DNA of 64,000 nt from Candidatus Multivoradales bacterium (GTDB taxonomy: Bacteria; Acidobacteriota; Thermoanaerobaculia; Multivoradales; JAHEKO01), in NCBI GenBank assembly GCA_965223855.1, contig CBDCXM010000009.1, positions 576,001 to 640,000 of the forward strand, written 5' to 3'. Within the stretch, counting starts at the first letter, position 1. Each line of letters opens with the position of its first letter. A program made the position numbers and the translations under genes. The notes beneath the pieces were generated by a model, which was given only the letters and a program-made list of their open reading frames with translations, did no database searches and was not told where the DNA came from. Below, one piece after another: positions 30,591 through 39,293 of this stretch.

Positions 30591-32576
30591 CTAGTCGGAG
30601 GCGTCGGGCTCGCGGCCGTTCAGGAGATCGAACCCCCGATCGATCTCTGCGTGACTGCCGACCAGCACCAGGTCGTCACCCTCCTCGAGCACGGTGCCGG
30701 CATCGGGGTTGGGCTGCGGCTTCTCTCCGCGAACGACCGCCAGCACGGTGGCGCCGGTGCGTCGTCGCAGGTCGAGGTCGCGCAGCGAGCGGCCGACGAC
30801 GGCACTCCCGGGCTCGATGCGGAAGATGTCGGTCGTCCCCGCCTCCAGCGCATCGAGGACCGCAGCCGACACCGCGGGGCTGCCCTCCGGCGAGCGGAGC
30901 ATCCGGTAGCCCTCGCCACGCAGCACCCGGGTCTGCGCCCGCACGACGTTGCGCGGCACGTGGAAGCGCTCGAGCACGAGGGTGAAGATCTCGATCGCGG
31001 TCTCGAACTCCTCGGCCACGACCTCGTTGGCGCCGAGCGCGCGCAGCTCCTCGATCTCGTCGAGCCGACGGGTCCGCACCACGAGCTCGACCGTCGGGTT
31101 GAGGTCTCTGGCGACCTGCACGGCGCGCTTCTGGGCGGTGTGGTCCGAGAGCGCGAACACCACGAGGCGCGCCCGCTCGATCCCGGCGTGCTCGAGCACC
31201 TCGCGCCGGGTCGCGTCGCCGAAGAAGATCGGTTCGCCGGCGCGCCGGCCGCGCTTCACCGTCTCGGAGTTGAGCTCCGCGACCACGTAGCGGATCCCCG
31301 CCTCCCGCAGCACCCGGGCGACGAGCCGGCCGCCGGCGCCGAAGCCGAGCACGATCACGTGTTCGCGGGCCGCCGCCACCTCTTCCGGCGAATCGGCGGC
31401 GGGCGACTCCCAGCGTCGAGCCCAGGCCCGGCCGGCGGCGGGTGCGAGAGAGACGAGGAGTGGCGTCAGGACCATGGTGAGCACCACGGCGCTCAGCAGG
31501 AGCTGGTACGCCGCCGCTTCGAGCAGGCCGTGCGATCGCCCCACCTCCATGAGGAGGAACGAGAACTCGCCAATCTGCGCCAGGCCGAGCCCGGCGACGA
31601 TGCGGATGCGCGCCGGCAGGCCGACGGCGAAGACGGCACCGCCGGCGACCACGCTCTTGATCACGACGACCGCCCCGGCCAGCAGCAGGATCGCCGGCCA
31701 GTTCGCGACGACGAAGCGCAGATCGACCAGCATGCCGATCGAGATGAAGAAGACGCTGGCGAAGAGATCGCGGAACGGCGCCACGTCCGCCACCGCCTGG
31801 TGGCTGTACTCGGTCTCCGAGATCAGCAGGCCGGCGACGAAGGCACCCAGCGCCAGCGAGAAGCCGAGCACATGGGTCCCCCATGCGAGCGCCAGGCACA
31901 GCCCGAGCGAGCCGAGGACGAAGGTCTCGCGGGCGCGGGTGCGGGCGATGCGGTCGAAGAGCGCGGGGGCGACCCGGCGGGCGATCAGCACGACGGCACC
32001 GATCGCCGCCAGCGAGCCGCCGAAGCGCAGCGCGAGATCGGCGGCCGACGCCCCCACCTCCCCGGCGAGCACCGGCACGAGGACGATCATCGGCACGATC
32101 AGGAAGTCCTGGAAGAGCAGGATCCCCAGCACCATGCGCCCCTGGGGCGTCTCGGTCTCGCGCCGGTCGCCGTAGAGCTTGAGCACGATCGCGGTGCTCG
32201 ACAGAGCGATGACGAAGCCGAAGAAAATCGCCCGCTCGATCGACAGGCCGAGCGCCAGGCTCGCCCCCGCCACCAGCACCGCCGTCACCCCCACCTGCAG
32301 CGTCCCGCCGACGAGGAACGGGCGGCGGAGCTCCCGTAGCTTGGCGAGCGACAGCTCGAGACCGATGACGAACAGCAGCAGCACGACGCCGATCTCGGCG
32401 AACACCTCGACATCCTCGGTGTCGGAGACCCAGCCGAGCGCCGACGGGCCGATCAGCACACCGGTCAGGAGCAGCGCGACGACCGGCGGGATCCGCAGTC
32501 GCGCCGTGACCAACAGAACGGTGACCGCGCTCGCCAGCAGGACGACGCTTTCCTGAAGCAGGTGTTCCAGGTGCAC
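30591..32576 (-). CDS. CPA2/Kef-type cation:proton antiporter with TrkA-N and TrkA-C domains
   Basis: AEIGVVLLLF.IGLE, LSSTAIV, LFQD, LAQIGEFSF, GFG..G, GDAT, C-terminal RCK-C domain. Confidence 0.92.
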   Translation of the reverse strand: MHLEHLLQESVVLLASAVTVLLVTARLRIPPVVALLLTGVLIGPSALGWVSDTEDVEVFAEIGVVLLLFVIGLELSLAKLRELRRPFLVGGTLQVGVTAVLVAGASLALGLSIERAIFFGFVIALSSTAIVLKLYGDRRETETPQGRMVLGILLFQDFLIVPMIVLVPVLAGEVGASAADLALRFGGSLAAIGAVVLIARRVAPALFDRIARTRARETFVLGSLGLCLALAWGTHVLGFSLALGAFVAGLLISETEYSHQAVADVAPFRDLFASVFFISIGMLVDLRFVVANWPAILLLAGAVVVIKSVVAGGAVFAVGLPARIRIVAGLGLAQIGEFSFLLMEVGRSHGLLEAAAYQLLLSAVVLTMVLTPLLVSLAPAAGRAWARRWESPAADSPEEVAAAREHVIVLGFGAGGRLVARVLREAGIRYVVAELNSETVKRGRRAGEPIFFGDATRREVLEHAGIERARLVVFALSDHTAQKRAVQVARDLNPTVELVVRTRRLDEIEELRALGANEVVAEEFETAIEIFTLVLERFHVPRNVVRAQTRVLRGEGYRMLRSPEGSPAVSAAVLDALEAGTTDIFRIEPGSAVVGRSLRDLDLRRRTGATVLAVVRGEKPQPNPDAGTVLEEGDDLVLVGSHAEIDRGFDLLNGREPDASD

Positions 32577-32707
32577 GGGGGGATTCTACGGGTCGGCTGC
32601 CAAGATGCCGTCTCGACTCGAGAACGAACTCACTCCCAACGGAGTCCGGAAGGACAGCACGAGCGTCAGACCCTCGCCCCTCTTGACTTGACCCAGAGTC
32701 ACACCAC

Positions 32708-32736
32708 TTGACAACAGCCTTTCGTTCGTCCATACT
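32708..32736 (+). promoter_or_regulatory. Sigma70-type promoter driving the retron locus
   Basis: TTGACA (32708-32713), 17-bp spacer, CATACT (32731-32736); predicted TSS near 32743. Confidence 0.75.
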
Positions 32737-32742
32737 CCCCTC

Positions 32743-33379
32743 ACTTCGGCCTTTGATTCAAAGGCCCAGATCTTTGAGACGTAGAGAATCTCTCTTGCGA
32801 GAGCGATCAGAAGGGGAAGATTCATGGAGCAGCGTCAACGCTGGCGCTGTTCGGGCTCCCGAGCCCTCTTAATGGGGACACATCCCCGCGACCGATTGCG
32901 GTCGAAACCTTCCACCACCCCTTGGCTGACTACCTACTGGTCTCGGTCTGACTATTCTCAGATCTAGATCGAATTGGTTCAGTTAGGAGTTGTGAGAGGA
33001 CAACGCGGCGGCAGCTGCGTTTGAAAGACGGGTTAACCAACGCTTCATCCCGGCGAATCTCGATCCAACCTTCTTTTCGGCGGCGGAAGGGCAATGGAGT
33101 CTTTCCGAGATTGCAAGGAGGTTTTCTATGAAAACCAAAGATCTGTCGCTCGCGCTCGCCAACCTTAGGCGTCTTCGGGCGGAACCGGGATTGGAGTTAG
33201 GTCATCGAAAGGTCCTGAACAAAGCTGAGAGGGAACTGAAAGCAGTAGCGCGATCAGGTAAGCCGCAACCCGACAGGGTATATCGAGCGGTAGAGCTGAT
33301 TTGCGAAGTTGCTCTTGAGGTGCTCTTTCAGTCGACGTCGGTGCGATAGACCAGGTTAACCCGTATTTCCATGAACTTC
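32743..33379 (+). ncRNA. Putative retron ncRNA (msr-msd-like hybrid RNA enclosing the small ORF); ends approximate
   Basis: Chain of short hairpins (32748-32766, 32830-32843, 32853-32866, 32874-32887, 32889-32904, 32947-32962). Long-range pairings 32816-32828/33368-33379 and 33023-33038/33354-33369. Lies upstream of a retron-type RT. Confidence 0.65.
33128..33349 (+). CDS. Small helical protein, putative retron effector/toxin
   Basis: 73 aa; strong RBS AAGGAGG at 33115-33121; first gene of the SP-HTH-RT operon. Confidence 0.7.
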   Translation: MKTKDLSLALANLRRLRAEPGLELGHRKVLNKAERELKAVARSGKPQPDRVYRAVELICEVALEVLFQSTSVR

Positions 33380-33380
33380 T

Positions 33381-33689
33381 ATGAACTACGGTAAAGCAAT
33401 AAAGATATGTCGCGCTGCATTCGACCTGAGCCAGGTCGATCTGGCGGCGCACCTATCTATTGGCCCGAGTCAGCTGTCGTTGGTCGAGGCTGGAAAGAGA
33501 CGTCCCAGCACGCGGACGATCGAGGAGATTTGCCAAACCCTTGGAATTCCGCCAGCGCTATTCCATGTACTCGCAGCCGACGGCGACACTCTGCAGTCAC
33601 AATCAAACGAACTAGTTTCCTCCCTTGGTGAGAGCCTTCTGCGGCTTCTGGTTTCCTCCTCATCGTCAACGGGCTCACGGCTCTCATGA
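33381..33689 (+). CDS. XRE/Cro-C1 helix-turn-helix protein (retron-associated)
   Basis: GKAIK..R....LSQ..LA..L.I..S.LS.VE.GKR.PS..TI..I...LGI; ATGA overlap with the RT gene. Confidence 0.88.
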   Translation: MNYGKAIKICRAAFDLSQVDLAAHLSIGPSQLSLVEAGKRRPSTRTIEEICQTLGIPPALFHVLAADGDTLQSQSNELVSSLGESLLRLLVSSSSSTGSRLS

Positions 33690-34564
33690 GGCCGCTTCTT
33701 TCCCTTCGAGATCTTGAGTGGAGACTCGAGATCCCACGTGAAGTACTTCGCAAGATCGCGAGTTCGATTCCGCTGCACTACCATCCTTGGCGAAAGGGAA
33801 ACCGGCTCATCGACAATCCGGACGAGCAGTTGAAGCACATCCAGCGGAGGATCAACTCTCGCCTCCTTGACGAGCTCGACTTGCCACTTCACCTTCACGG
33901 CGGCGTTCGTGGCCGATCACCTCGAACCAACGCACAAGCGCACAGCGCCGCCAAAACTCTCGTACGAATCGATGTAGAGAGGTTCTTTCCAAGCATCACG
34001 AACCGGCACGTGTACGGTGTGTGGCGCGACCAACTCGGAGCAGGCCGAGATGTGGCCAAGCTCCTGACTCAGCTGACGACGTATCGTTTTCGACTCCCGC
34101 AAGGCGCTCCATCAAGCGTAGCGCTAGCGAATCTCGCGCTGGCTCCGATCGAAGATTTCCTCTTGGTGCGTTCTGAGGAACTCAACATCGTTTTCACCCG
34201 TTTCGTTGACGACATCGCGTTGTCCGGGGACTATCCGCAGGAACTTATTCAAGACGTCGTTACGGGGCTTCGCTCGCTCGGCCTACGAAACAACCGCAAG
34301 AAGCTGAATATCATGGGGCCCCAATCGAACCGCCAACTGACCGGGCTCAACACCGAGAGCAGTGGCGGTCCTAGCGTCCCTCTGGAGTACCGAAATGGCC
34401 TGCGGTCAGCGGTCCATCGATATCGGCATTCTCGAGACGGCTCCGAGGAGAAGTCTAAGGCTCTCGACAGACTAAGGGGCCGAATCAACTACGTAAGGCA
34501 GACCAACCCCGGCTCGGCGAGATCACTTGAAGAGCTGCTGGTTGCCGTTGAAGCCCACGCCTGA
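33686..34564 (+). CDS. Retron-type reverse transcriptase
   Basis: LK.IQR.I, HGGV.GRS, NAQAH (retron region X NAxxH), D.E.FFPSI, LPQGAPSS..LANL, FTRFVDDI..SG (catalytic xxDD), N..K, QLTGL (region Y VTG-like). Confidence 0.9.
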   Translation: MRPLLSLRDLEWRLEIPREVLRKIASSIPLHYHPWRKGNRLIDNPDEQLKHIQRRINSRLLDELDLPLHLHGGVRGRSPRTNAQAHSAAKTLVRIDVERFFPSITNRHVYGVWRDQLGAGRDVAKLLTQLTTYRFRLPQGAPSSVALANLALAPIEDFLLVRSEELNIVFTRFVDDIALSGDYPQELIQDVVTGLRSLGLRNNRKKLNIMGPQSNRQLTGLNTESSGGPSVPLEYRNGLRSAVHRYRHSRDGSEEKSKALDRLRGRINYVRQTNPGSARSLEELLVAVEAHA

Positions 34565-34688
34565 GCATAGGTGGGCATCGCCGGTTTAGACCCAGCCGGT
34601 ACCGGCGAATGGACTGGGTCACGGAGTATTCCTCAGCGTCCGGCAGTAACCACCTTTCGCTCAGCTGTCCTGGCCGGTACCATCCCGC

Positions 34689-37600
34689 ATGCTTGATCGT
34701 CAGGTCGAATCAGGCCTGAACGTCTTCCACCCGACGATCGCGCGCTGGTTCACCGAGTCGCTCGGCACACCGACCGACGTCCAGGCGCGCGCGTGGCCGC
34801 GGATCGCCGCCGGGGAGCACCTGCTGGTCAGCGCTCCGACCGGTACCGGCAAGACGCTGACCGCGTTTCTGTGGGCGCTCGACCGGCTGCTCACCGGAGC
34901 GTGGGAGGGCGGGCAGGTGCGGGTGCTCTACGTCTCGCCGCTGAAGGCGCTCAACAACGACGTGCGGCGCAATCTGCTCTCACCGCTGGCGGCGTTGGAG
35001 ACTGCGTTCGAGACCGCCCGAGAGCCCTACGAGCCGGTGGAGGTGATGACCCGCAGCGGCGACACGCCGCAATCGGAGCGCCAGCGGATGGTGCGGCGGC
35101 CGCCGGAGATCCTGATCACGACGCCGGAGAGCCTCAACATCCTGCTCACCTCCAAGGGCGGGCGGTCGATCCTCACCGGGCTCGAGACGGTGATCTTCGA
35201 CGAGATCCACGCCGCCGCCGGGTCGAAGCGCGGCACCCACTGGATCACCGCCGTCGATCGGCTGGTGCCGCTGGCGGGGGAGTTCCAGCGCATCGCGCTC
35301 TCCGCCACGGTGCGGCCGCTCGAGACGGTGGCGCGCTTCGTCGGCGGCTACGAGATGCGGCCACTCGACGACGAGGGACGCGAGGTCGAATACCGCGAGC
35401 GGCCGGTCGGGATCGTCACCTCGGAGCGGGCGAAGGCGTACGACCTCGAGGTCGATCTCGGTGCGCCACAGCTTGCGGACGCGACCGCACCCGGCGGCAC
35501 AGTCCCGGGCACAGGCGAAGCCGGCATCAACGAAGACAAGGAGGAGAATGCCTGGGAGAGCCTCGCCGCCCGCATCGTCGACGTGGTGGCGCGCAACCGC
35601 TCGACGCTGGTGTTCGCCAACTCGCGCCGCACCACCGAGCGGCTGACGCGGCTGATCAACGAGCGCGGGAGCACCACCGGCAACGCCAGTCTCGCCTACT
35701 CCCACCACGGCTCGCTGTCGCGGGAGCTCCGCACGGTGGTCGAGCGCAAACTCAAGAACGGTGAGCTCCGGAGCATCGTCGCCACCAACTCGCTCGAGCT
35801 CGGCATCGACATCGGCTCGCTCGACGAGGTGGTGATGGTGCAGACGCCGCCGACGGTCGCGGCGGCGGTGCAACGGCTCGGGCGCGCCGGCCATCAGGTG
35901 GACGCCGTCTCGCGCGGGCGGCTCTATCCGCTGTTCGAGCGCGACCTGGTGAGCGCTGCCGTGGTCGCCCGCTGCGTGCTCGAAGGGGACATCGAGGAGG
36001 TGCGGCCGATCGAGGGGGCCCTCGACGTGCTCGCGCAGGTGATCCTCTCGATGGTCGCCACCGAGGCGTGGCCGCTCGACCGCCTTTTTCACACCGTGCG
36101 TTCGAGCGCCCCTTACCACCGCCTCAGCCGGCGGCAGTTCGACCTGGTTCTCGAGATGCTCGCCGGCCGCTACGCCGACACCCGGGTGCGGGAGCTGGCG
36201 CCGCGGGTGACGATCGACCGGGTCGAGGGGGTGGTGCACGCGCGCCCCGGGGCGGCGATGAGCGTCTACCTCTCCGGCGGCACGATCCCCGACCGCGGCT
36301 ACTTCGGCCTGCGCACCGTCGACACCATGGCGAAGCTCGGCGAGCTCGACGAGGAGTTCGTCTGGGAGCGCCGGGTCGGCGACACCTTCTCGCTCGGCGC
36401 CCAGAACTGGCGGGTGCGGCGGATCACTTCGAGCGACGTGCTCGTCTCCCCCGCACACCGCTCGGCCGCCATGACCCCGTTCTGGCGTGCCGACGCGCGC
36501 AACCGCAGCTTCTTCCTCTCCGAGCGGCTGGGCACGTTCCTCGAGACAGCCGACGCCCATCTCGAGGAGCCGGGCGGCCGTGAGGCGCTCCTGGCCGCCC
36601 TCACCGAGCGCCACGCGCTGAGCGCCGAGGCCGCCGCCGCGCTGGTCGATCTGCTGGAGCGCCAGCGCGAGGCGACGGGCGGGTCGCTCCCCCATCGGCG
36701 CCATCTGCTGGTCGAGCACGCCGACGACGCCACCGATCAGTCGGGCGGCAGGCGGATGCTGCTGCACACCGGCTGGGGCGGGCGCGTCAACCGGCCGTTC
36801 GCCATCGCGCTGGCGGCGGCGTGGGAGGAGCAGAGCGACCTGCCGCTCCAGATCGAAGCCGAGAACGATGTCGTGCAGATCGTCCTGCCGTCGCCGATGG
36901 CGATCGACGACCTGCTGGCGCTGGTGCGGCCCGACAACATCGAGAGCCTGCTGCGCGCCCGGCTCCAGCGCACCGGCCTCTTCGGCGGCCGATTCCGCGA
37001 GAACGCCGGCCGCGCGCTGCTGCTGCCGCGCTCCGACCTGCGACGCCGGATCCCGCTGTGGCTCACCCGCGAGCGCTCGAAGAAGCTCCTCGAGTCGGTC
37101 GCCGGCCACGAGGACTTCCCCGTCGTCGTCGAGACCTGGCGCACCTGTCTGCAGGACACCTTCGACCTGGAGGCGCTGCGCCAGGTGCTCGATGAGCTCG
37201 ACCGAGGCGAGATCCGCATCACCGAGTGCCGCACGCTCGCACCGTCGCCGTTCGCCGCCGCACTGGTCTGGCAGCAGACCAACCGGCTGATGTACGAGGA
37301 CGACGTGCCGGAAGGGGGCGGCGAGCTCAGCCGCACTCTCCTCCAGGAGCTGGTGTTCTCGTCGCAACTGCGCCCGCGACTCCCGGCCCAGTTGATCGAC
37401 ACGTTCCAGCGCAAGCTCCACCGCACCTTCCCGGGGTACGCGCCGACGACGATCCCGGAGGTCGACGCCTGGATCGGCGAACGGTTGGCGCTGCCGGTCG
37501 AGGAGTTCGAGGCGCTGCTTGCGGCGCGGGCGCGCCAGGTCGGCGACGCCACTACGGCCGAGCTGCTGGAGCTGGTCGATACCGAGGCGTGTGTCGTCAG

Positions 37601-39293
37601 CACGGCCGGCGGCGGGCGCTGGATCTCGGCACTCGAGCGCCTGCCGCGGGTGCTGCGCGGGCTGTCGTTGACTCCCGAAGACGTCGAGCTGACCTCGATC
37701 ACCGACCCTGGAGGGCCGGTGTCCGCGGAGTTCCGCTCCCATCTCGAGGAACTGTGGCAGAGCCGTGAAGATCCGGGCGAGGGCGCCGGGGAGGCGCTAC
37801 GGGCGCTCCTTGCCGAGTGGCTGCGCTTCTACGGCCCGATCCCGCCACGGATGCCGGTCGCGGTCTTCGGGCTCGAGCCCGCGGCGGCGCAGCGCGCGCT
37901 GGCGGCGCTGGTCGACGACGAGACGCTGGTGCTCGACCGCTTCCGCCGCGACGACGATGACGAGGAGCTGTGCGACGCCGAGAATCTGGAACGATTGCTG
38001 CGGGCGCTGCGCGCCCAGGCACGACCGTCGTTTCAGGCGCTACCGCTCGACCATCTGCCGCTGCTGCTGGCCGAGCGTCAGGGGCTTGTTGGCCGCGGCG
38101 ACGGCATCGAGGGGCTGCAGGACGCGCTCGAGGGGTTGCTGCTCTACCCGGCGCCGGCCGGGAGCTGGGAGTCGGATCTGCTGCCGGCGCGCCTCGCCCC
38201 CTACTACCCGGCGTGGCTCGACTCGGTGCTGCTCGAGAGCGACCTGGTGTGGATCGGCTGCGGGCGCGAGCGCACGACCTTCACCTTCGCCGAGGAGCGC
38301 GAGCTGCTGGCGGAAGCGCCGATCGACGAGGACCTCGCCGGAGAGCTGCCGCCGGAGATCGACGAGGCGTTCGCCTTCGGCCGCCGCCGGGCGTTCGAGG
38401 AGCTGGTGCGCTCGCAAGATGCACCGGCGGCCGACCTGGCGGCGAAGCTCTGGCGCGCGGCGTGGCGCGGCGAGCTGTCGAACACCACCTTCTCGGTGGT
38501 GCGCCAGGGAGTACTCCAGCGTTTCAAGCCAGCGGCAGCGGCGGAGCGGCGTCCTCCGAGGCCCGGCGGCCGGGGCAGCCGCTCCGCCGTCGGCCGACGC
38601 GCCTTCGATCGCTGGAAGTCGGCGCGTCCCTCGGGCGGCGACTGGTTCCGGCTCGACCCGGTCGCCGCGCCCGAGGACCCGCTGGCGGCCGAAGACCTCG
38701 AGCGCGACCGCGCCCGGTTGCTGCTGTCGCGCTACGGCATCCTCTTCCGCGAGCTGCTCGACCGCGAGCTGCCGAGCTTCCAGTGGTCTCGGATCTTCCG
38801 CGCCCTCAGACTGATGGAGCTCTCGGGCGAGGTGGTGGCGGGGCAGTTCTTCGAGGGAATCCACGGCCCGCAGTTCGTCTCGCGCTCGACCTGGCGGCGG
38901 CTCTCCGAGGGACTCGGCCAGGGGGAGGTCTACTGGGTCAGCGCAATCGACCCGGCGGCGCCGTCGGGGATCGCTCTCGACGAGTGGCGCGAGCGCTGGC
39001 TGCCACGCCGCTCGTCGAACCACCTGGTGTTCGAGGGGACGCGGCCGGTGGTCCTTTCGCGCCGCCACGCCGCCGAGCTCGACATCACGGTGCGCCCCGA
39101 CCACCCGAAGCTGCCCGAGTATCTCGGCTTCCTGAAGGTGCTCCTGACGCGCGACGCTCAGCCACGCAAGGCGATCGACATCGAGACGATCAACGGCGAG
39201 CCGGCCAAGCGGAGCGCCTTCGCCGGCCCGCTGGGAGAACTCTTCAGCACCACCCGCGAGGCGAAGAGCCTGCGGCTGCGCCGGCGCTACTGA
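34689..39293 (+). CDS. lhr: Lhr-family ATP-dependent DEAD/DEAH helicase (long form)
   Basis: APTGTGKT, YVSPLKALNND, ILITTPESL, DEIH, LSAT, HHGSLS, SLELGIDIG, QRLGRAGH, GGTIPDRG, ELDEEFV. Confidence 0.93.
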   Translation: MLDRQVESGLNVFHPTIARWFTESLGTPTDVQARAWPRIAAGEHLLVSAPTGTGKTLTAFLWALDRLLTGAWEGGQVRVLYVSPLKALNNDVRRNLLSPLAALETAFETAREPYEPVEVMTRSGDTPQSERQRMVRRPPEILITTPESLNILLTSKGGRSILTGLETVIFDEIHAAAGSKRGTHWITAVDRLVPLAGEFQRIALSATVRPLETVARFVGGYEMRPLDDEGREVEYRERPVGIVTSERAKAYDLEVDLGAPQLADATAPGGTVPGTGEAGINEDKEENAWESLAARIVDVVARNRSTLVFANSRRTTERLTRLINERGSTTGNASLAYSHHGSLSRELRTVVERKLKNGELRSIVATNSLELGIDIGSLDEVVMVQTPPTVAAAVQRLGRAGHQVDAVSRGRLYPLFERDLVSAAVVARCVLEGDIEEVRPIEGALDVLAQVILSMVATEAWPLDRLFHTVRSSAPYHRLSRRQFDLVLEMLAGRYADTRVRELAPRVTIDRVEGVVHARPGAAMSVYLSGGTIPDRGYFGLRTVDTMAKLGELDEEFVWERRVGDTFSLGAQNWRVRRITSSDVLVSPAHRSAAMTPFWRADARNRSFFLSERLGTFLETADAHLEEPGGREALLAALTERHALSAEAAAALVDLLERQREATGGSLPHRRHLLVEHADDATDQSGGRRMLLHTGWGGRVNRPFAIALAAAWEEQSDLPLQIEAENDVVQIVLPSPMAIDDLLALVRPDNIESLLRARLQRTGLFGGRFRENAGRALLLPRSDLRRRIPLWLTRERSKKLLESVAGHEDFPVVVETWRTCLQDTFDLEALRQVLDELDRGEIRITECRTLAPSPFAAALVWQQTNRLMYEDDVPEGGGELSRTLLQELVFSSQLRPRLPAQLIDTFQRKLHRTFPGYAPTTIPEVDAWIGERLALPVEEFEALLAARARQVGDATTAELLELVDTEACVVSTAGGGRWISALERLPRVLRGLSLTPEDVELTSITDPGGPVSAEFRSHLEELWQSREDPGEGAGEALRALLAEWLRFYGPIPPRMPVAVFGLEPAAAQRALAALVDDETLVLDRFRRDDDDEELCDAENLERLLRALRAQARPSFQALPLDHLPLLLAERQGLVGRGDGIEGLQDALEGLLLYPAPAGSWESDLLPARLAPYYPAWLDSVLLESDLVWIGCGRERTTFTFAEERELLAEAPIDEDLAGELPPEIDEAFAFGRRRAFEELVRSQDAPAADLAAKLWRAAWRGELSNTTFSVVRQGVLQRFKPAAAAERRPPRPGGRGSRSAVGRRAFDRWKSARPSGGDWFRLDPVAAPEDPLAAEDLERDRARLLLSRYGILFRELLDRELPSFQWSRIFRALRLMELSGEVVAGQFFEGIHGPQFVSRSTWRRLSEGLGQGEVYWVSAIDPAAPSGIALDEWRERWLPRRSSNHLVFEGTRPVVLSRRHAAELDITVRPDHPKLPEYLGFLKVLLTRDAQPRKAIDIETINGEPAKRSAFAGPLGELFSTTREAKSLRLRRRY

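Follow-up and report, generated by a model that had tools for sequence, protein, structure and literature searches.

The window analysed here is a stretch of 64,000 nucleotides from a Candidatus Multivoradales bacterium (contig CBDCXM010000009.1, positions 576,001 to 640,000 of the forward strand), and the subject is a retron locus within it; all coordinates are those of the window. Positions 32708-34564 are probably a Type VI retron, composed of a promoter, a structured RNA, a small toxin termed SP, a helix-turn-helix (HTH) protein and a reverse transcriptase (RT), carried on a horizontally acquired island of low G+C content. The probability of this reading was put at about 0.6. The system is a further example of a known architecture rather than a new kind, and its host is a high-GC bacterium. 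That a toxin open reading frame (ORF) can lie inside a retron RNA is already in print, since it is described in two preprints (Zhang et al., bioRxiv 10.1101/2025.10.22.683967, and García-Rodríguez et al., bioRxiv 10.64898/2026.04.27.721009, hereafter Zhang 2025 and García-Rodríguez 2026).

The three genes were found on the plus strand of the island, as were all features of the RNA described below, in the order SP, HTH and RT. The SP gene (33128-33349, with its stop codon at 33347-33349) encodes a putative toxic effector of 73 residues, and homologous ORFs, detected by tblastn with E values of 2e-13 to 8e-3, were present at the equivalent place in 12 loci. The HTH gene (33381-33689) encodes a Cro/C1-type protein of 102 residues, for which the top PADLOC model was HTH_VI (9.5e-19) and which also matched Pfam HTH_3 (1.9e-11). 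The retron RT (33686-34564, 292 residues) starts with a 4-nucleotide overlap with the HTH stop codon, and its top PADLOC model was RT_VI (1e-64), with 216.5 bits against 159.8 bits for the runner-up, RT_other. Its catalytic xxDD motif reads FVDD, and D175 and D176 were invariant across 40 aligned relatives. The placement of the RT in the RT_VI clade by model, the Cro/C1 HTH gene overlapping the RT gene, the position of SP upstream of HTH and the xxDD motif together point, at the level of sequence, to Type VI. SP was predicted by AlphaFold2, using 24 homologues, to form a three-helix bundle (predicted local distance difference test score, pLDDT, 91.6), and it had no match in PADLOC or NCBIfam. 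A match to DUF5955 was rejected as due to chance, because its 17.1 bits were below the gathering cut-off of 27.1 and only 1/24 SP homologues matched the family. We infer the toxicity of SP by analogy, from Retron-Vpa2 and Retron-Sen3 alone.

The G+C content of 32550-34650 was 53-60%, compared with 65-75% in the flanks, which delimits an island of approximately 2 kb. The island sits between a long ORF for a membrane protein on the minus strand (30591-32576) and an ORF for a helicase-like protein of 1534 residues (34689-39293), and no direct repeats were found flanking it. A match to the RT was absent from all four same-genus genomes examined (77-97% complete), and a search for a closer RT among 60 relatives and 400 genomes of the phylum gave best identities of 37-40% (at most 38% and 40%, respectively); for these two reasons the system looks horizontally acquired. 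The nearest RTs to that of the window were 60, 56 and 55% identical. No closer relative was found on viral contigs, and among plasmids none of the 10 records listed exceeded 31% identity, all 187 matching records being below 60%.

For comparison, 30 loci from genomes and metagenome contigs were assembled in which an SP-like ORF, an HTH gene and an RT gene occur in the window's order (31 loci counting the window). The SP was detectably homologous to that of the window in 12 of these loci, and the other 18 had an SP-like ORF of 65-97 residues. A core set of 13 loci, the window among them, was aligned. The RTs of the homologous loci were 29-44% identical to the window RT, and the three nearest RTs mentioned above were not among the 30 loci. 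Loci were sought with a 10-sequence RT alignment, one of 40 RTs having proved too divergent for this purpose.

Upstream of SP, a sigma-70-type promoter, TTGACA-17-CATACT (32708-32736), was the sole promoter-like site in 32500-34750. Its TTGAC aligned in 13/13 core loci, and transcription is predicted to start at approximately 32744. The RNA from there to approximately 33380 would be a hybrid RNA, in which a non-coding part resembling msr-msd and the SP messenger RNA (mRNA) are joined in one molecule. Among the sequencing runs registered as RNA, none was found to contain this stretch. The earlier note on this DNA had proposed that the transcript is both non-coding RNA (ncRNA) and mRNA, and the analogy with Retron-Vpa2 (Zhang 2025) and Retron-Sen3 (García-Rodríguez 2026) favours this.

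The transcript starts with an 8-base-pair (bp) hairpin (32748-32766), which was present in all folds computed and has a hairpin at the equivalent alignment position in the homologues. It is followed by the leader motif M, CAGAUCUUUG (32767-32776), by a leader strand (32780-32800) and by the a1, or primer, arm (32809-32828). The next nucleotide, G32829, is the candidate branching G, as the earlier note had suggested, and it aligned with a conserved G in the context A-G-C in 9/13 core loci, the remaining four reading AAUGC. Four short msr-like hairpins (32827-32904) were present in all folds and align with hairpins in the homologues. The long stem-loop at 32908-32999, whose 18- and 13-bp helices were also present in all folds, is a candidate for the msd, the template of reverse transcription; it was so assigned by analogy with the mapped multicopy single-stranded DNA (msDNA) of Vpa2, and it lies in a part of the alignment that varies in length. 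The SP Shine-Dalgarno sequence, AAGGAGG (33115-33121), was paired in both of the alternative folds described below. No Rfam covariance model matched within 32000-35000 at E<=10. An ORF of 47 residues (32824-32967) overlaps the msr-like hairpins; it had no family match and is probably not a gene.

Two long-range stems tie this non-coding part to the sequence beyond SP, and their coordinates and letters were as given in the earlier note. The 26 nucleotides that supply both 3' arms had been placed just after the SP stop codon; their sequence was correct, but they begin 5 nucleotides past the stop codon and not directly after it. In the inner stem, the 5' arm GAAAGACGGGTTAACC (33023-33038) pairs with the 3' arm GGTTAACCCGTATTTC (33354-33369) at 15/16 positions, and a repeat finder reported 16 nucleotides with 94% complementarity and 315 nucleotides between the arms. 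These arms are referred to as the inverted repeats IR1 and IR2. The inner duplex had an energy of -21.7 kcal/mol, matched by 1/1000 dinucleotide shuffles of the 3' arm against 32744-33127. Unconstrained minimum-energy folding of 32800-33395 (z=-5.5; 0/100 shuffles as low) gave both stems, as did folding of the full putative transcript, 32744-33400. As in a hybrid RNA, inverted repeats join the msr-msd part to sequence past the SP stop codon, and the inner stem corresponds to the IR1/IR2 stem that closes the published Type VI hybrid RNA.

The pairing of IR1 with IR2 was examined in all 31 loci by comparing the region 140 to 36 nucleotides upstream of the SP start with the spacer between the SP stop and the HTH start, using 200 shuffles. 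The helix score was above that of the shuffles at p<=0.035 in 17/31 loci; this score is ungapped, so that bulged stems (L082, L086, L094 and L162) score low. IR1 ended 61-115 nucleotides before the SP start in the 31 loci (61-97 nucleotides in 30 of them), and the sequences of the arms were widely different. In a swap test with fixed windows on 22 non-redundant loci, the mean score was 24.7 for cognate arms and 16.7 for non-cognate arms, a separation reached by 0/10,000 permutations (p=1e-4). Nine near-duplicate loci were omitted from this test, and the outcome was unchanged with all 31. Of the 22 loci, 12 had the higher score on the coding strand, 3 had it on the complement and 7 were tied (Wilcoxon p=0.012), and the helices contained 33 G-U pairs, which together argue that the pairing acts in the RNA. 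RNAduplex energies calculated on windows of unequal length separated cognate from non-cognate arms in 0/31 loci, a result judged to be confounded by window length. The statement in the earlier note that the inner stem encloses the SP ribosome-binding site and ORF was thus borne out by a conserved position with differing arms. The check on conservation and covariation in homologues that the same note had called for came out in favour of the inner stem, which is conserved and covaries.

A further long-range pairing involves the leader and the start of SP. Motif M is 100% complementary (10/10 bp) to M' (33136-33145), which covers SP codons 3-6, and a UCUUU motif was the top partner of the early SP codons in 14/31 loci. 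The leader covaries with the SP codon for Asp or Glu, reading AGAUCUUUG::CAAAGAUCU in loci with K-D-L and AGCUCUUU::AAAGAGCU in loci with K-E-L. In the window, the helix can be extended to approximately 30 bp, covering the SP Shine-Dalgarno sequence and AUG. The 31-locus comparison independently supports, from sequence, both IR1/IR2 and the pairing of the leader with early SP codons across lineages.

Two folds of the window RNA were obtained with similar predicted energies. Fold A, the unconstrained minimum (-269.4 kcal/mol), has the outer and inner stems as its long-range helices; the a1 arm is in the outer stem, and the SP Shine-Dalgarno region (33115-33123) is paired with 33067-33075. Fold B (-267.9 kcal/mol, 1.5 kcal/mol above fold A) was obtained by enforcing the 10-bp leader pairing alone. 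This pairing was then extended by a 20-bp helix between the leader strand 32780-32800 and 33111-33130, covering the SP Shine-Dalgarno sequence and AUG, and a1 (32809-32823) was paired with 33055-33074. The SP ribosome-binding site and start codon are therefore predicted to be sequestered in structure, as in a hybrid RNA. Folding of the homologues was started at the aligned transcription start, because a version with 420 nucleotides upstream took in untranscribed promoter DNA and was unstable. The energy of fold B minus that of fold A ranged from -6.8 to +10.3 kcal/mol in 6 homologues, and their minimum-energy folds contained the leader pairing in four cases and IR1/IR2 in two (four and three, respectively, when the window is included). 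This suggests that two predicted folds of similar energy are a trait of the family. The 3' two-thirds of the SP coding sequence (33200-33352) form a long imperfect hairpin, with helices of 8, 13, 9 and 9 bp, directly upstream of IR2; this is in line with the covarying pairs reported within the SP coding region by García-Rodríguez 2026.

In the outer stem, the 5' arm GAAGATTCATGGA (32816-32828), with one bulged A and with G32829 directly after it, pairs with the 3' arm TCCATGAACTTC (33368-33379), which spans -13 to -2 relative to the HTH start codon. The energy of the outer duplex was -16.8 kcal/mol, matched by 5/1000 dinucleotide shuffles of the 3' arm against 32744-33022. In a stricter scan without bulges and with a 230-nucleotide upstream window, the stem was reduced to a 9-bp core (p=0.119). 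When the far-upstream region was compared with the interval from the end of IR2 to 22 nucleotides into HTH, 0/30 homologous loci had a significant helix (lowest p 0.119). A second test, anchored on the 18 nucleotides before the conserved G, detected the outer pairing in 0/12 homologues, where 13-98 of 100 shuffles were as good; in the window itself, 0/100 shuffles were as good. The identification of the outer stem with the a1/a2 repeat, as made in the earlier note, was thus not supported for the family by this sequence comparison.

The a1 arm of the window has three partners of nearly equal energy, at 33367 (-17.2 kcal/mol), 33055-33075 (-15.6 kcal/mol) and 33097-33107 (-15.1 kcal/mol). The second of these (GAAUCU ... 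CCUUCU) is a candidate proximal a2: it overlaps the strand 33067-33075 that pairs with the Shine-Dalgarno sequence in fold A, and it lies at the alignment position of the a2 of the homologues. In seven homologues (L082, L083, L001, L086, L088, L094 and L108), a1 pairs with a proximal a2 whose first nucleotide lies 52-58 nucleotides before the SP start; the differences between the arms are compensatory, as in CAUGACC/GGUCAUG against ACGACC/GGUCGU. The evidence in these seven loci is moderate (1-14 of 100 shuffles as good). In a wide-window scan, eight further loci again had the 3' partner of a1 at 60-38 nucleotides before the SP start. We take the outer stem to be an element of fold A that is specific to this lineage, rather than a productive a1/a2, and it is possible that it is a chance product of the CAUG core.

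Several observations weigh against this reading. No locus of the 31 was individually significant in the wide-window scan for a1::a2, so that the case for the proximal a2 is made by the anchored test together with the recurrence of its position. The proximal a2 of the window was itself weak, with 22/100 shuffles as good and p=0.5 in the wide scan, and the distal partner was the strongest for a1. The distal helix abuts G32829 and the proximal one ends 5 nucleotides short of it, so the former suits a primer stem better. As the homologues compared were all distant (RT 32-44% identical by tblastn), the outer stem may be conserved within its own sub-lineage. In addition, the closing repeats are said by Zhang 2025 to resemble a1/a2. 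Finally, IR1/IR2 crosses both the a1/a2 and the leader pairing, and these helices might coexist in a pseudoknot instead of alternating, two arrangements which the folding programs used do not distinguish.

The first of the rival explanations takes up these points: the outer stem would be the functional a1/a2 of this lineage, G32829 would prime on the strand leading into 33368, the complementary DNA (cDNA) would copy IR2 and then the SP hairpin at 33200-33352, and all or part of the toxin gene would serve as the msd. The energy of the distal partner and the shuffle result of 5/1000 are in its favour, as is the exact end of the stem at G32829, which is the classical geometry of retrons; a long imperfect SP hairpin stands directly upstream of IR2, and 18 covarying pairs were reported in the SP coding region by García-Rodríguez 2026. 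It is nevertheless considered unlikely, given that the stem was seen in none of the 30 loci or of the 12 anchored homologues, that seven homologues have a proximal a2 instead, that the msDNA of Retron-Vpa2 maps to the msr-msd part and not to SP (Zhang 2025), and that the RT would first need to unwind the 15-bp IR1/IR2 helix. The opposite possibility is that only the inner stem is under selection, the outer one being a functionless byproduct of a near-palindromic CAUG core common to a1 and to start-codon regions. The a1 arm does match UCUAUGAA at both the SP start and the HTH start, and neither the no-bulge scan (p=0.119) nor the 30 homologues lend the stem any support. Against this, the energy of the stem is seldom reached by shuffles when a bulge is allowed, and the outer stem, which belongs to the minimum-energy fold, stacks directly on the inner one, the 3' strand having no unpaired base between them; a stem of no function was judged distinctly unlikely. 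The coaxial helices might also provide a double-stranded processing site of approximately 28 bp with a single uninterrupted 3' strand, at which an RNase III-type enzyme would cut the hybrid RNA from the operon transcript. This would fit with the large excess of hybrid RNA over downstream operon RNA in Vpa2 and Sen3 (Zhang 2025; García-Rodríguez 2026), but the homologues lack the outer half of such a site, and the explanation, which is compatible with our reading and not exclusive of it, seems highly improbable.

The RNA probably works in the manner of the published Type VI hybrid RNAs. Under the reading of the outer stem as an element of fold A, the mechanism might be as follows. By way of the inner stem, the SP-HTH spacer would be held against the 3' side of the msd, and the SP ribosome-binding site and ORF would be looped out. 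In fold A, the outer stem would pair a1 with the region of HTH translation start, as part of an extended fold, and a1 would be held on a decoy partner, so that cDNA synthesis would be low. Fold B would be the priming-competent form, with the leader (32767-32800) on the SP start (33111-33145) and a1 on the proximal a2. The RT would start at G32829 and copy the upstream msd through IR1 and the hairpin 32908-32999, and the SP gene would not be copied. As in Retron-Vpa2, accumulation of cDNA induced by phage, or loss of control by the HTH protein, would release the translation of SP and stop the infected cell.

According to the earlier note, the RT must either copy the toxin gene or bypass it at the stem junction. 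This choice probably does not arise, because the a1 of seven homologues pairs just upstream of the SP ribosome-binding site. A bypass at the junction would also fit poorly with the geometry of a polymerase, as G32829 and nucleotide 33022 should both exit the coaxial stack on one side, with the continuous 3' strand on the other, and would therefore not act as primer and template for each other. With the outer stem as primer stem, no template would be available except IR2 and, after it, the 3' half of SP.

It is conceivable, although we regard it as doubtful, that the 26-nucleotide strand past the toxin gene acts as a double clamp, which holds a1 and IR1 together and, as a decoy a2, locks both reverse transcription and HTH translation in the off state. 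If this were true, release of the clamp would lead to the priming fold, and the retron would control its own priming through three competing a2-like partners. Such competition is not described for Type VI retrons in the accessible text of Zhang 2025 or García-Rodríguez 2026.

The HTH gene has no Shine-Dalgarno sequence before its start, so its translation may depend on coupling or on refolding of the RNA. A second ATG, at 33371, precedes the HTH start by 10 nucleotides in another reading frame and opens an ORF of 7 codons, and the motif ATGAACT occurs twice in 33371-33394. An operator-like palindrome, TGAC-N5-GTCA (32689-32701), lies 7 nucleotides upstream of the -35 box. The full palindrome was found beside TTGAC in 6/13 core loci (the window, L001, L088, L094, L097 and L108). 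A palindrome scan counted 7/31, the seventh, L100, being outside the core set and taken as spurious. The block GTCAT was conserved in the alignment, and loci without the full palindrome retained the GTCAT half-site. On the basis of these sequences, the palindrome is possibly the site bound by the HTH protein for autoregulation. The IR1 arm of L088 and L108 (GAGTCAT; IR1 near 1536-1549 and 2343-2357, respectively) was identical to the operator half-site, and that of the window differs. As the IR1 arm equals the half-site in some homologues, the IR1/IR2 duplex, or DNA copied from it, might be a further target of the HTH protein.

The locus was compared with the two Type VI retrons studied so far. 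Retron-Vpa2 has a single enriched hybrid RNA of approximately 470 nucleotides, consisting of msr-msd and the SP coding sequence, in which inverted repeats bring the 3' end back onto the msr-msd arm; base pairing takes up the start codon of SP as well as its ribosome-binding site, and the msDNA is required for SP translation (10.1101/2025.10.22.683967). The Vpa2 msDNA, of 63-86 nucleotides, maps to the msr-msd stem-loop, and a conserved 7-nucleotide direct repeat was proposed as its target (10.1101/2025.10.22.683967). The window shares with Vpa2, as described there, the SP-HTH-RT operon, a predicted single RNA with msr-msd and SP closed by inverted repeats after SP, and a predicted pairing of the SP ribosome-binding site and start codon, but its RNA would be longer, at approximately 640 nucleotides, and the 7-nucleotide direct repeat was not found in its family. 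The direct-repeat model of Zhang 2025, in which the leader or the SP start region would be a complement of the cDNA, was not supported in this family: p<=0.05 was reached in 2/26 tests and the best matches varied by locus. A 7-nucleotide repeat in the window, CAGATCT (32767 and 32959), had p=0.15.

Retron-Sen3 is described as having conserved repeats, with IR1 upstream and IR2 just past the SP stop codon, an alternative ncRNA fold whose basal stem contains the SP ribosome-binding site, and an extended fold in which a short stem joins the HTH start region to the leader sequence (10.64898/2026.04.27.721009). The same arrangement is seen in the window, where IR1 precedes the SP ribosome-binding site, IR2 follows shortly after the SP stop, the 5' end has a hairpin, an alternative predicted fold places the SP ribosome-binding site in its basal stem, and in the extended fold upstream leader sequence is predicted to pair with the region of the HTH start. 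The covariation of IR1/IR2 was reported as not significant within one lineage for Sen3, whereas the swap test on 22 diverse loci was significant here. A further difference from the reported Sen3 fold is that the 5' arm of the outer stem is a1 in the window, and lies approximately 50 nucleotides beyond the 5' hairpin and not directly after it.

A canonical retron msr-msd RNA, such as that of Ec86, has an a1/a2 terminal inverted repeat and a branching G. The window resembles it in having a candidate terminal inverted repeat beside a G in A-G-C, msr-like hairpins followed by a long candidate msd hairpin, and an RT with invariant xxDD, NAxxH-like and TG motifs, but differs in the protein gene within the RNA fold, in the several competing partners of a1 and in the lack of an Rfam match. 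In hok/sok, the leader of the toxin mRNA is engaged in long-range pairing, and the toxin is not translated until the RNA is remodelled. By analogy, the window system would share the long-range leader pairing on the mRNA of a small toxin; unlike hok/sok, it has no antisense RNA, and the remodelling would be tied to reverse transcription.

The locus adds a high-GC environmental bacterium to a family that has been studied so far in two systems from Gammaproteobacteria. The choice among the three partners of a1 bears on how these retrons silence reverse transcription before infection.

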